From Escherichia phage KEP4, in the sequence record PP047754: DNA of 64,000 nt; one strand, given 5' to 3'. Position 1 is the stretch's first letter. Each line of letters starts with the position of its first letter. The notes below the pieces were generated by a model. That model saw nothing but the letters and a program-made list of their open reading frames with translations, had not been told where the DNA came from and did not search any database. The translations under genes were made by a program, and so were the position numbers. Shown here piece by piece: positions 61,696 through 64,000 of the stretch.

Positions 61696-61761
61696 AAAAT
61701 TTGGCGGGGTCTGAGGATTTTCACCTCACCTGCTGGATTGGCCTCCAGCTGTTCTCTATGA

Positions 61762-61787
61762 GGATTCGATGCGCGCGCATCGAATCC
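61762..61787. repeat. perfect 26-bp palindrome GGATTCGATGCGCGCGCATCGAATCC
   Basis: Sequence equals its own reverse complement. Confidence 0.85.
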
Positions 61788-62018
61788 CTTAAACTATCGC
61801 CCCATAATTTATTGTGTGACCAACCAAGGTCTCTCAACCCTTTATCCCGTTTGTGCATGATCAGTTCATGCATGCCTGTTTGTGCGCCTCGCGGCAACGC
61901 GCTTCTGTGGGTCTTTGGCTTGCACCGTAGCCTCACCACAGGCGTTTATTTTTCCAGGGCTTTCCACTTGCAAGTCTTGACCATACAGGGATACGGGCTT
62001 GCAAGATCGGGTTGGACA

Positions 62019-62096
62019 CAACTTTGATGGCTCTGGTACTAAAGATCCCGCGTCACCCATAGACATGGTTTATAAAATCCAGAGCCATCAAAGTTG
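62019..62096. repeat. 18-bp perfect inverted repeat enclosing 42 nt
   Basis: 62019-62036 CAACTTTGATGGCTCTGG pairs with 62079-62096 CCAGAGCCATCAAAGTTG. Confidence 0.8.
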
Positions 62097-62474
62097 CAAC
62101 CAAATGTTACAACTCGCATTCAATGTCTTCGTCACACCGAATACTTGTCCTCTATCGCTCGGACCAAACGAGGCTGGCCGAAGAAACAAAACACCACTCA
62201 ACACTAGAGCAAGGATGTGGTTGATGGCCACGATGTAATGTCTCTATCGAAGAGTGATCACACTTGTCAGATGATCACTGTTTTGCGAACTCGAGAATAC
62301 TGCGCCTGTCTCGGGTTTCCCCTTAGTTCGGCCTCTCATTGTTCGTCCGGTCAGGGAGCTACCCTTGATGACCAGCTTATATTGAGATCTTCGCCAGCGC
62401 CCACCAGTGTCTAGAATGTGTAGGCGTCGAGGTCTGCAAGGCATTGCCCTATTTCATACAACGCTCTCTCAAGT

Positions 62475-62630
62475 ACGCAAATCGAAGTTCTCTGGGCTTA
62501 ACAGGTTCGACCCAACATGTTGTATATCGCCTAACTTACTCATGGGACGGCCACTTCTGTGTACAGACCTTGAGGGTTAAAAGATATACCCAGAGAACTT
62601 CGATTTGCGTTGTGGGGGCAAACCCCCCAC
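62475..62630. repeat. 22-bp perfect long-range inverted repeat (stem enclosing 92 nt) plus adjacent 7-bp G/C hairpin
   Basis: 62475-62496 ACGCAAATCGAAGTTCTCTGGG pairs with 62589-62610; then GTGGGGG CAAAC CCCCCAC at 62612-62630. Confidence 0.8.
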
Positions 62631-62760
62631 ACGGCTACTTCTTTAACAGGGATTGCTAGCCCTGGGGATTCCACTGTTTAAGGCTTTATCCCATAACGCC
62701 CGAGGCGCGTTTTAACTTATTGAAGCTTGCATAACTGCAAACTGATGCGCTGTGAGACAC

Positions 62761-62887
62761 ATCTTTGAGGGCACTCAGTGTACAACAGGCTCCGATATTT
62801 CATAGGGCATTACTGCCTCGGATTTAAGTTGCCTTTCTCCTGAAACTCCATACAGTCTCGCGTCTGACGCGGAATGCCCTCAAAGAT
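62761..62887. repeat. 13-bp perfect inverted repeat enclosing about 100 nt
   Basis: 62761-62773 ATCTTTGAGGGCA pairs with 62875-62887 TGCCCTCAAAGAT. Confidence 0.75.
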
Positions 62888-64000
62888 ATGGAGCCGTTTT
62901 AGGGAGTCGAACCCAAATGCTTGGCCAGCGCTGACCTTACATCCCATCTGACTTAGGCAACCCACCTCTGCCTACTCAGGAGCTTATCCCCTTTGGACAG
63001 TCAGATATAACGGCGTTGGGATTGGAGGAAGGACTCGAACCTTCTCATGTACGCTCCTGATTTCTCAGAAGTAGTCTGCTCCCATCGACCTATTAAGTAC
63101 ACGCTCCGCTCATTGTCGACGGGAGATTATTAATCACACCCTCCCGTCTATTTTAGTGCGCCGAATTTGGTGATGAGGAATCGGAAGACCTCACTGGTGT
63201 ATGGCTATTAAGCTACTGCCAGGAACGTGTTATCATTAGCGATTATTTTTGTGGTCAGTTTCTAAAAACCCGCAAAGTCACGCACAACGAAAACGAAAAC
63301 CTGTTTGAGTCCTAAACCTACCTGTCTTGGTCTCACATCGCTATGAGTGGCCAGGACTCAAACAGCTTGCCGTTCAGTGAGTTAACTATACTTTGTAACC
63401 CGTTATTGATAAAACCTTTTATTTTTGTTGGCGAGGGTGCGGAATCGAACCACACTTCTGAGCGCTACCCCGTGTCATCAATGCACCACCTCACCATCGA
63501 TTTGCCGGAACTTACGCATCCGGCCTCGTCCTGTCGGTGTTCTTCTGAATCCGGGAAGATCAGCAGGAACTATGAATCAAGTTAATTCAACCAACAGGAA
63601 TCCTCTTGTTGCCCTTTGACGCAACATTATGAACCCTCTATGAAGACTCATAATGTTGTCGGCGTGATGGAGATTAGCGCCCCCGACCTCCCCTTATATG
63701 TTGGTGTCGACTTGCCAACGGGGTGCTCTCGTTTTTCTGAGCTAATCACGCTACAACAGGGAGTTTCGTTCTCCGACGGTCAAGTGCGTCCACTGACACC
63801 AGCGAGGTGGCTATTACGCCTCTATTCACACAAGCCCCTGAGACTAGGGGTTAACTGGTTTTGGGCTGCAAACCCGACTCCCACTGTGTTATTTCCCTCA
63901 TGTTTAATACTTTACCGCAGCCCAGCTAATTTGAAAAGTCCTCTCCCCTTTGAGCTACACTGCCCACAGCAGTGCGGACGAACCTTCACTCAAAACCGGA

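Follow-up and report, generated by a model that had tools for sequence, protein, structure and literature searches.

A tmRNA-like, tag-encoding RNA within a modular array of structured RNAs next to the tRNA genes of Escherichia phage KEP4

The region upstream of tRNA-Met

The DNA considered here is a stretch of 64 000 nt from Escherichia phage KEP4 (sequence record PP047754), referred to below as the window, and our subject is the apparently empty region of about 2.3 kb beside its transfer RNA (tRNA) genes and, within it, an RNA resembling the messenger-like part of transfer-messenger RNA (tmRNA). All of the tRNA genes in the window (Ser, Asn and Met, Table 1) are on the minus strand and the region (61696–63954) therefore lies 5′ of tRNA-Met on that strand, that is upstream and in the same orientation, as stated in the original prediction, which was made from the sequence of this stretch. 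Over 4.1 kb around the locus the sequence shares 99.9 % identity with Salmonella phage SFP10 (Kuttervirus, Ackermannviridae), where the equivalent segment between tRNA-Met and SFP_0168, a coding sequence of 48 aa (window 61696 to approximately 63954), carries no annotation. A matching unannotated gap of 1.2–3.2 kb is found in CBA120, MDA2066 and IME250 (both Taipeivirus), Kevin (Miltonvirus), Ds5CZ (Limestonevirus), SKML-39 (Agtrevirus), ZQ1 and fGh-Ecl02, and the related genera Taipeivirus, Agtrevirus, Miltonvirus and Limestonevirus thus retain this position as unannotated DNA.

The region had been described as free of protein genes and dense in helices, and both descriptions were borne out. 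The longest stop-free stretch in the six frames is 123 aa, compared to 127±29 aa in 200 dinucleotide shuffles, hence there is no open reading frame (ORF) beyond chance expectation; the more specific claim that 62660–63340 contains no ORFs holds for those of at least 60 aa but not for two trivial ones of 33 and 51 aa. A perfect palindrome of 26 bp was confirmed at 61762–61787. There are also four long inverted repeats, whose arms measure 25, 22 (perfect), 24 and 22 nt and surround 42, 92, 85 and 39 nt, respectively. Four segments have strongly negative fold z-scores (Table 1). The mean z-score of 200 nt tiles was −2.35 on the minus strand and −0.15 in a coding control, and folding of the minus strand exceeds that of the plus strand.

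A tmRNA-like RNA with a tag reading frame

The most informative element of the region, which was missing from the original prediction, is a tmRNA-like, tag-encoding RNA of approximately 185 nt read from 63300 to 63118 on the minus strand. From its 5′ end, it comprises a GUUUUCGU motif, an A-rich leader, a short reading frame, a hairpin that resembles helix 5 of tmRNA and holds the stop codon in its loop, and two pseudoknots (Table 1). The reading frame was first visible in an alignment of four phage families, and ARAGORN at a lowered threshold reported the tmRNA resume consensus and the tag ANDNTFLAVA followed by two stops at 63240 to 63205. The ten-codon frame is intact in all 128 copies, with no indels. 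Of the ten sites at each codon position, 3 are variable at the first, 4 at the second and 9 at the third in a set of 90 distinct RNAs. Tag codons 1, 2 and 10 vary synonymously only, the sixth codon specifies Tyr or Phe throughout, and the stop codon alternates between TAA and TGA only. Upstream of the frame, the A at −4 is invariant and the U at −5 is present in 85 of the 90 distinct RNAs; these correspond to the frame-setting U85 and A86 of E. coli tmRNA. Divergent tags, ANDNAFLMAA in Kevin and ANDSEVLMAA in ZQ1 and fGh-Ecl02, are accompanied by compensating changes on the opposite side of the hairpin. Judged from these substitution patterns, the tag is clearly under coding-type constraint.

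The helices covary. The 22 nt arms of the leader hairpin (63374–63353 and 63313–63292, 86 % complementary) read CTGTTTGAGTCCT/AGGACTCAAACAG in Kuttervirus, CTGTTTGGGCA/TGCTCAAACAG in Taipeivirus and CTGTTTGGGGTTAAG/CTTAACCCCAAACAG in Miltonvirus Kevin. The outer six pairs of the helix-5-like hairpin are invariant and its inner stem varies (CG, UG, UA). Stem S1 of the first pseudoknot occurs as TGAGG/CCTCA (50), CAAGG/CCTTG (19) and CGAGG/CCTCG (18), and the S2 pair at columns 124–143 as GC (46), AU (25) and CG (18). The loop of the second pseudoknot is identical on five unrelated stem sequences, and its long-range helix covaries as CGCACT/GGTGTG (46), CACACT/AGTGTG (18) and CGTACT/GGTATG (16). 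In an alignment of 89 distinct cores collected by an exact-pattern scan of IMG/VR (>120 loci; alignment A2), 96.3 % of the cells in the helices are standard pairs, compared to 30–44 % when the partners are slid, and both sides have changed at seven pairs (135 cells); none of 500 shuffles reached the observed values. Comparative alignment thus revealed compensatory changes in this RNA as well as in the other modules described below.

The same alignments bear on the possibility that the region acts as DNA, serving as an origin of replication, as a site for packaging or recombination or as a series of integron-like cassette boundaries. Its perfect palindromes are strand-symmetric, the replacement of cargo between repeats that end in AAC...GTT (see below) superficially recalls attC, and several GenBank records are linearised within it. 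However, G-U pairs, which function on one strand only, as RNA, are frequent in the conserved helices (GU 71 at columns 147–171, UG 71 at columns 151–167), the minus strand folds more strongly, and pseudoknots, a tag frame and CCA ends are features of RNA. The features labelled 'repeat_region' are 21–22 bp arms and not genome termini, and no integrase is associated. A role at the level of DNA is therefore very unlikely.

Standard models see little of this RNA. In 59900–64000 of the window, only three tRNAs pass the Rfam gathering thresholds and no other family reaches its threshold, relaxation to E≤10 adding one tRNA with an insert (60285–60370) and chance-level matches. ARAGORN at default settings finds no tmRNA in the window. 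Below threshold (47 bits), tmRNA_permuted (RF04321) matched 63208–63358 on the minus strand with 20.6 bits, and beta_tmRNA was also weak. Sub-threshold matches to tmRNA_permuted or tmRNA lie at the element in four phage families at 20–32 bits, the highest, 32.4 bits in the Felix O1-like phage EC6, coming from an alignment that borrows the neighbouring tRNA-Ile. We have named the group the 'LAVA-tag' RNA family and define it here by a 5′ GUUUUCG motif, a ten-codon AN[DE]xx[YF]L(A/M)(V/A)A tag, the CTGG...CCAG hairpin, a pseudoknot of the CCGA/TCGG type and a hairpin loop, GGTGTGATTAATAA, that pairs to CGCACT. The KEP4 copy includes all of these features, and no rearrangement is needed to align it with those of five further phage lineages.

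A predicted sigma70-like promoter upstream (Table 1) is kept in all Ackermannviridae copies, with TTGTCA in Taipeivirus and Miltonvirus. Similar promoters, read from the sequence, lie just 5′ of GTTTTCG in Felixounavirus (TTGACA-N17-TATAGT), the Klebsiella siphophages and SSU5-like elements, and their predicted start is at GUUUUCG or a few nucleotides before it. Hence, the conserved unit would begin there and be approximately 185–200 nt long.

Two copies, in Klebsiella phage MDA2066 (L126) and Enterobacter phage fGh-Ecl02 (L131), are mosaic. In both, an Ackermannviridae-type 5′ half is joined to a second pseudoknot and downstream modules of the temperate-phage type, pointing to recombination within the RNA gene between unrelated phages.

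Distribution and annotation

When the 2.27 kb gap was compared to 50 697 phage records using sensitive BLAST, 630 records matched, about half of them to the tmRNA-like element alone. Outside the Ackermannviridae all matches fall on a single segment of ~95–170 nt (window ~63126–63294) at 70–82 % identity, and the carriers include Felixounavirus, the lambdoid phages HK633 and HK620, ~48 kb Klebsiella siphophages, and phages of Cronobacter, Enterobacter and Acinetobacter. Further copies were found at more than 120 IMG/VR loci, in SSU5-like phage-plasmids and in 157 of 5426 complete E. coli genomes. The existence and structure of this tmRNA-like RNA, its covariation and its wide spread in unrelated phages can be regarded as established. 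The element lies inside tRNA arrays; in EC6 it is within an array of 23 tRNA genes, and in a temperate contig from IMG/VR it is followed by tRNA-Arg(UCU) and tRNA(CAU). In HK633 it is between pR′ and the holin gene.

A bacterial ancestor sharing this helix 5 and possessing an ordinary tRNA-like domain was sought. An exact-pattern scan of 100 044 species genomes matched only three contigs, two from Enterobacterales and one labelled as a Bacteroidales metagenome-assembled genome, and revealed no bacterial chromosomal counterpart of the element. The last of these (L135), an 11 kb contig from buffalo rumen, carries an exact match to the element and is probably a mis-binned phage contig.

The match rows sampled from the 157 E. 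coli genomes include no annotation by the prokaryotic genome annotation pipeline (PGAP) at the element, and in sampled phage records it is almost always unannotated, the entries being 'none', 'promoter' or 'tRNA-OTHER'. The phage tmRNAs in the exhaustive survey of ssrA by Hudson et al. were limited to mycobacteriophages, Bacillus phage G and DS6A, that of DS6A consisting of the tRNA-like domain only, and their search of RefSeq viruses reported no element from an enterobacterial phage (PMC4131195). An ARAGORN 'ssrA' or 'tmRNA' is noted, but not analysed, for Felix O1 and Moogle in two genome announcements (PMC4319497, PMC4392139); the presence of something tmRNA-like in Felix O1 has thus already been noticed. 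No published description of the element or of its tag sequences was found in the literature searched, and the family itself, the absence of its tRNA-like domain and its spread over Ackermannviridae, lambdoid phages, siphophages and phage-plasmids appear to be undescribed.

Other modules of the array

The remainder of the region consists of further structured modules (Table 1). Conservation across genera, as assessed by BLAST, is blockwise, with 94–96 % identity at 62872–63017, 97 % at 62143–62178 and, even in Limestonevirus, 90 % at 61701–62028, and consensus folds pair 92–100 % of the cells in each block. The compensatory pairs listed in Table 1 for modules outside the tmRNA-like RNA were counted on structures predicted from the same alignments, and the count for module y, whose structure was predicted on its own alignment, is thus optimistic.

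The T-arm and acceptor modules that had been noticed by eye are present, with three such 3′ modules on the minus strand, at 63494 to 63427 (module a), 63111 to 63017 (module e′, ending C-CCA) and 63014 to 62889 (module f, ending U-CCA), the latter two with an encoded CCA. Module e′ includes a GUGUAC/GUACAU helix, a GNRA hairpin at the place of an anticodon arm, the T-arm GAAGG-TTCGAGT-CCTTC and a discriminator C, and both T-arm and helix covary in one homologue, L117 (GGAGG/CCTCC and GGTGC/GCACC). It is absent from L036, ZQ1, Agtrevirus and Miltonvirus, and was found neither by RF00005 at E≤10 nor by ARAGORN at default settings. Module f is the most conserved piece of the region, at 94–98 % across Kuttervirus, Taipeivirus and ZQ1 with flanks at 74–85 %; it lacks an anticodon loop, with a tetraloop hairpin in place of the anticodon arm, and does not match RF00005. 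Modules z1, a, e′ and f are not canonical tRNAs, being seen only by ARAGORN at -ps80 and with poor stems, and RF00005 and ARAGORN detect only Ser, Asn, Met and the tRNA with an insert at 60285–60370. Module a is replaced by other sequences in Taipeivirus.

The closing helix of long-stem module I3 covaries (CTTTGAGGGCA/TGCCCTCAAAG compared to CTTAGAGGACA/TGTCCTCTAAG), and in some Kuttervirus genomes (L009, L036 and L037) its cargo has been swapped for an insert that contains a T-arm.

A decayed tRNA array was among the possibilities raised originally, and in its present form this explanation would have a decaying array with a captured tmRNA fragment, functionless now. As to origin it holds for z1, a, e′ and f, which are tRNA-derived (T-arms, acceptor-like stems, CCA). 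Relatives have other canonical tRNAs (Tyr, Ile, Trp, Gln, Cys, Arg) in or around the region, modules have been gained and lost between lineages, only ~1.2 kb remaining in Limestonevirus, and homing endonucleases insert at the locus. However, conservation is far above that of neutral non-coding phage DNA, as the values for module f and for 62143–62178 illustrate, helices are maintained by compensatory changes, and the tmRNA-like RNA, with its own conserved promoter, is intact in at least six unrelated phage lineages. We therefore consider loss of function improbable.

The main proposal of the original prediction was a large structured RNA, possibly of the GOLLD or ROOL type. Of this, a functional, conserved, non-coding and structured locus tied to the tRNA cluster stands, and the single large ornate RNA does not. 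One such RNA occupying most of the 2.3 kb with tRNA-like parts embedded would account for the high helix density, the mean z-score and the adjoining tRNAs, as often with GOLLD. However, models for GOLLD, ROOL, group I and II introns, RNase P, HEARO and OLE gave no match in 59900–64000 even at E≤10. A predicted promoter (63412 to 63385) and encoded CCA ends lie within the region, single modules turn up on their own in other phages and have been gained, deleted or swapped singly among relatives, and the folds include no long-range helices between modules. This reading is very unlikely.

Table 1. Features of the KEP4 tRNA and structured RNA region, in minus-strand order
Feature	Position in window	Strand	Description
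Structured leader block between SFP_0168 and module a	63500–63954	minus	74–81 % in Taipeivirus; 17 compensatory pairs, 13 homologues
Module a, 65 nt truncated tRNA-like	63427–63494	minus	GGTGAGG/CCTCGCC; T-arm TTCGATT; upstream of promoter
Sigma70-like promoter	63385–63412	minus	TTATCA-N16-TATAGT; consensus scan, start site predicted
5′ leader hairpin	63292–63374	minus	inverted repeat I4; 3′ arm with conserved GUUUUCGUU motif
tmRNA-like RNA, conserved core	63118–63300	minus	GUUUUCGU motif from 63300, mRNA-like region, helix-5-like hairpin, two pseudoknots
Tag frame	63205–63240	minus	GCT AAT GAT AAC ACG TTC CTG GCA GTA GCT TAA TAG (ANDNTFLAVA, two stops)
Helix-5-like hairpin	63194–63222	minus	CTGG...CCAG, stop codon (TAA) in loop; RNAalifold and pair counts
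PK2-like pseudoknot	63161–63193	minus	stem TGAGG/CCTCA; loop CCGA pairs with downstream TCGG
Second pseudoknot	63118–63160	minus	hairpin GACGGGAG/CTCCCGTC, loop GGTGTGATTAATAAT; loop GGTGTG pairs with upstream CGCACT
Module e′, tRNA-like RNA	63017–63111	minus	acceptor-like AGCGGAG/CTCCAAT, mismatches 2:71 and 3:70; motif scan and fold
Module f, 126 nt cloverleaf-like RNA	62889–63014	minus	long arms, T-arm TTCGACT, acceptor GCCGTT/AACGGC, U, encoded CCA
Long-stem module I3	62758–62890	minus	19 bp closing helix around ~95 nt cargo; z=−6.3; 3 compensatory pairs
Long-stem module I2	62475–62610	minus	perfect 22 bp closing helix around 92 nt; z=−8.0; 3 compensatory pairs, 7 homologues
Structured module y	62281–62470	minus	consensus fold; 14 compensatory pairs (optimistic count), 8 homologues (74–99 % identity)
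Long-stem module I1	62012–62103	minus	~20 bp stem, 42 nt loop; z=−8.2; 4 compensatory pairs
Structured module z2	61815–62000	minus	15 homologues including Miltonvirus and Limestonevirus; 5 compensatory pairs
Module z1, cloverleaf-like pseudo-tRNA beside tRNA-Met	61696–61815	minus	four-way junction fold, first arm the 26 bp palindrome; z=−4.2; 5 compensatory pairs; ~90 % identity in Dickeya Limestonevirus
tRNA-Met	61620–61695	minus	
tRNA-Asn	61131–61206	minus	
tRNA-Ser	60374–60462	minus	
Intrinsic terminator ending the tRNA and non-coding RNA island	60037–60059	minus	9 bp GC-rich stem then TCTTTTTGTC; consensus match

Modules in temperate phages

Temperate phages share this design of repeated closing sequences around differing cargos, with cassette-like swapping and mosaicism. 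Many of them carry a tRNA-like module B (GUUGUGGUGAAUGCGC..., T-like arm, ...CACCACAAC), linked via covarying inverted repeats of 19 nt. It accompanies the core into Taipeivirus MDA2066 and is also an independent family in 145 phage records, Stx2-converting and Klebsiella phages among them.

Module B was seen in HK633 and HK620 (L004 and L012), L005, L023, L106 (~7060–7200, for example) and L126, in each case unannotated. Its layout, which is tRNA-like or Y-RNA-like, is a 5′ GUUGUGGUGAAUGCGCAGGCUGAUGCGC, a variable insert of 30–90 nt, a T-arm-like GCCGG-AGAUCAGCA-CCGGC and then CACCACAAC, and no Rfam match was found for it. In the temperate arrays (L023 at +100 to +500 from the tag, L012 and L106) identical inverted repeats bound successive RNA modules, with ...CCACAAC-A-GGTAAGAGCATT, a spacer of 45–72 nt and AGTGCTCTTTCC-GTTGTGG..., and with the covariant form GGTAAGGGTA/TGCCCTTTCC in MDA2066. 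These boundary repeats could be shared processing stems. The analogy of such AAC...GTT-flanked repeats with integron attC sites is a remark only, as no integrase is present and the G-U pairs point to RNA.

Neighbouring genes and records

A 74 aa ORF, SFP_0169 (window 61382–61606, minus strand), lies between tRNA-Asn and tRNA-Met and is conserved across Ackermannviridae genera; its product has no Pfam match. In CBA120 (L002) a gene for an HNH homing endonuclease (9820–10233) is directly 5′ of tRNA-Met in place of module z1, and the same insertion (window junction 61696/61806) is present in SS3, SS9, SP1 and others but not in the KEP4 window. The tRNA at 60285–60370 (minus strand) reaches 48.7 bits with RF00005 only when an insert of 22 nt in the anticodon loop is skipped, and is labelled as a pseudo 'tRNA-OTHER' in SFP10; it could represent an intron-like insertion or a disabled tRNA. 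Two further tRNA-like genes on the minus strand, at 60997–61123 and 60125–60274 (127 and 150 nt in total), have perfect 7 bp acceptor stems, good T-arms and inserts of 50–80 nt, and the equivalent of the first is labelled as a 135 nt 'tRNA-OTHER' in phage rabagast. The non-coding blocks around them share 90–98.6 % identity with Taipeivirus, conservation peaking at 60811–60880.

Several Kuttervirus GenBank records are linearised within the hairpin-rich region, which is at the start of the record of bering (L137) and at the end of that of pertopsoe (NC_049507), and one 21–22 bp arm of the 62475/62610 inverted repeat is labelled 'repeat_region' in such records. The breakpoints may reflect assembly problems at long hairpins. 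Genome termini or a direct terminal repeat at the locus were considered and rejected, as the 'repeat_region' features are only these hairpin arms.

The missing tRNA-like domain

Since the mRNA-like features of tmRNA are present and the tRNA-like ones are not, the RNA has been filed as tmRNA-like and not as a tmRNA, and a number of points weigh against its being a tag template that is decoded. An acceptor stem with G3:U70, a T-arm, a discriminator A and CCA were not found in the conserved unit, and ARAGORN at default settings calls a tmRNA in none of 127 extended copies. The calls for a tRNA domain that it makes at low thresholds were rejected, because they are mutually inconsistent, either 'permuted' or standard, and borrow neighbouring tRNAs. 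With the 5′ end placed at GUUUUCG by the predicted promoter, there is no upstream acceptor strand, and the downstream neighbour varies by lineage. In Kuttervirus module e′ is 7 nt downstream of the core, in ZQ1 and L036 e′ is deleted and module f abuts the core, in Agtrevirus and Miltonvirus both are absent and a hairpin-closed module is next to the core, in Felixounavirus the neighbour is tRNA-Arg(UCU) or a D-armless tRNA-like element (G3:U70, A73), and the L026-type prophages have the core alone. Neither e′ nor B includes G3:U70, no acceptor piece complementary to GUUUUCG was found within the 64 kb window, and among the matches listed no phage SmpB homologue was found in Ackermannviridae or Felixounavirus records. 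The topology proposed, in which a complete tRNA-like domain follows the mRNA-like region, has no precedent. The nucleotide similarity to host ssrA, an ungapped match of 48 nt with 32 identities to E. coli ssrA nt 79–127 (leader, tag and stop loop) and no match elsewhere, is short and only marginally above shuffles. Finally, the promoter and terminator calls are matches to consensus only, and the way in which compensatory pairs of the other modules were counted must also be borne in mind.

Candidates for the missing part were sought. The idea that GUUUUCG supplies the 5′ acceptor strand in a two-piece tmRNA was rejected, as the 64 kb window has no T-arm plus YGRRRRY-N-CCA partner beyond chance matches inside genes, and the 39 nt loop of the leader hairpin includes neither a T-arm nor CCA. 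A standard arrangement, in which the leader would supply the acceptor 5′ strand (GUUUGAG with CUCCAAU), was also rejected; the pairing is weak, at 6/7 with a mismatch, and competes with a covarying hairpin of 13 bp. Modules e′ and f and the D-armless element of EC6 were likewise discarded as a conserved tRNA-like domain for the family at large, since each is confined to particular lineages and all are missing from Agtrevirus, Miltonvirus and the L026-type prophages. For pairing with host tmRNA, the duplex energy was indistinguishable from that of shuffles. A partner of the Ro/TROVE type was also rejected; the 'RNA-binding protein' of EC6 is DUF2828/DUF7788 and has no homologue in the window. 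That protein (L003, 4669–6084, minus strand, 471 aa) flanks the Felix O1-like tRNA array.

The missing domain invites the explanation that the RNA is a decoy or sponge, an undecoded tmRNA without a tRNA-like domain that titrates a host factor and so modulates host trans-translation during infection. The target would be a factor that recognises the mRNA-like or pseudoknot part of tmRNA, such as S1, RNase R or the tail of ribosome-bound SmpB, or else a tmRNA-targeting nuclease or defence system. A tRNA-like domain is found in no lineage, the strong dedicated promoters predicted suggest abundance, and the pseudoknots and hairpin loop are highly conserved. The reciprocal half exists in the tRNA-like-domain-only tmRNA of DS6A, and molecules of that kind inhibit tmRNA (PMC4131195). 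However, the tag substitutions fit a translated frame, with third-position variation, replacement of stop only by stop and no indels in 128 copies, and the degron-like residues are conserved. Many tag nucleotides differ from those of the host while the amino-acid character is kept, and a pure binding mimic would need none of this pattern. A decoy is thus unlikely, though less so than decay of the array.

Interpretation

Very probably, the locus holds a functional tmRNA-derived RNA gene inside a modular array of non-coding RNAs. The fuller explanation, in which the array includes a tmRNA-derived tag RNA that is decoded via SmpB with the help of a separate or adjacent acceptor, is the one we favour, with some reserve. 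An island of ~4 kb on the minus strand (~63954 to 60037) would be transcribed as a polycistronic RNA in which canonical tRNAs are interleaved with discrete small structured RNAs, and its members would recombine as cassettes. The flanking tRNAs, tRNA-like elements and long stems would then probably act as punctuation at which RNase P/Z and RNase III free the individual RNAs, and the 19–22 bp closing helices of the long-stem modules look like shared processing stems. The tmRNA-derived RNA (63300 to 63118) would be transcribed from its own promoter (63412 to 63385) and appears to retain the mRNA-like half of tmRNA without a conserved tRNA-like domain.

Whether the tag is decoded, the RNA feeding host SmpB-dependent trans-translation as an alternative template with an acceptor from a separate or adjacent tRNA-like piece, is in our view evenly balanced. 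A candidate for such a two-piece-like acceptor in the KEP4 window is module e′ (63111 to 63017), with its T-arm and CCA, and in temperate phages module B, which may be tethered by its 19 nt complementary linker. More tentatively, and with the balance tilted against it, the RNA may be a tag template that acts in trans without a covalent tRNA-like domain, either by forming a new version of two-piece tmRNA together with a non-homologous tRNA-like acceptor RNA that is encoded separately, the coding piece being 5′ of the acceptor, or by loading into stalled ribosomes via host SmpB and tmRNA. If this were so, the phage would set the tag, and hence the fate, of polypeptides stalled during infection, and the stem-flanked modules would represent a general recombining cassette system for small phage RNAs in tRNA arrays.

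What defines tmRNA is the combination of a tRNA-like and an mRNA-like part, and the phage RNA keeps a tag frame that is maintained by selection and apparently translated, with no recognisable tRNA part, raising the question of whether phages interfere with, or make use of, ribosome rescue and proteolytic tagging. Among the carriers are phages in wide use for therapy and biocontrol (Felix O1-like, Kuttervirus), SSU5-like phage-plasmids and lambdoid prophages of pathogenic E. coli (e.g. O26:H11). A common phage RNA gene thus escapes standard annotation by PGAP, Rfam thresholds and default ARAGORN, and structured RNAs that are conserved, and traded as cassettes between unrelated phages, are present in the 'empty' DNA of phage tRNA clusters.

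Comparison with known systems

GOLLD and ROOL are, like the KEP4 RNAs, phage-borne, structured and found beside tRNAs, but neither model matches at E≤10 and the KEP4 locus is modular, with internal promoters and ends. The stem-plus-T-arm modules resemble Y RNA (YrlA, RF02553) in architecture only; YrlA has no match in the window at E≤10, and its sole weak match, in the temperate array L106 (21.5 bits, threshold 69), overlaps real tRNAs. Species 1 and 2 of T4 (rnaC and rnaD) are small stable RNAs of unknown function that are co-transcribed with the phage tRNAs and have tRNA-like 3′ ends as processing signals, and the KEP4 modules are likened to them by description only. T4 has two such RNAs, whereas the KEP4 island has about a dozen modules, including the long-stem cassettes and the tmRNA-like RNA.

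With tmRNA (RF00023, e.g. E. coli ssrA) the phage RNA shares an A-rich leader in which U occupies −5 and A occupies −4, a GCN (Ala) resume codon, a ten-codon tag of the form AN[DE]xx[YF]-hydrophobic-A-x-A (ANDENYALAA in E. coli), a stop codon in the helix 5 loop and H-type pseudoknots thereafter, and the ungapped match to ssrA nt 79–127 is a further point of likeness. It differs in beginning at GUUUUCG right after the promoter, with no tRNA-like domain, in having two small pseudoknots where tmRNA has PK2–PK4, with PK1 not evident, and in a tag that ends AVA or MAA and not LAA. Its scores (10–14 bits for the clan in the window, 16 bits in EC6) are below the gathering threshold of 47. The tmRNAs of mycobacteriophage cluster C (e.g. 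Bxz1) and Bacillus phage G are also phage-borne, usually among tRNA genes, but they are complete. DS6A carries the half opposite to that of the KEP4-type RNA and is a precedent for a phage keeping half of a tmRNA.

The best-scoring Rfam family, at 20–32 bits, is the two-piece permuted tmRNA of alpha- and beta-proteobacteria and cyanobacteria (RF04321, RF01849-51). Its genes have the acceptor piece (with T-arm, 3′ acceptor strand and CCA) upstream, then an intervening loop and then a coding piece whose start is the 5′ acceptor strand, whereas the phage RNA has neither the upstream acceptor piece nor such a start. Both have a UUCG-containing motif near the 5′ end of the coding piece, and the two-piece tmRNAs are the precedent for coding and acceptor functions that reside on separate, base-paired RNAs.

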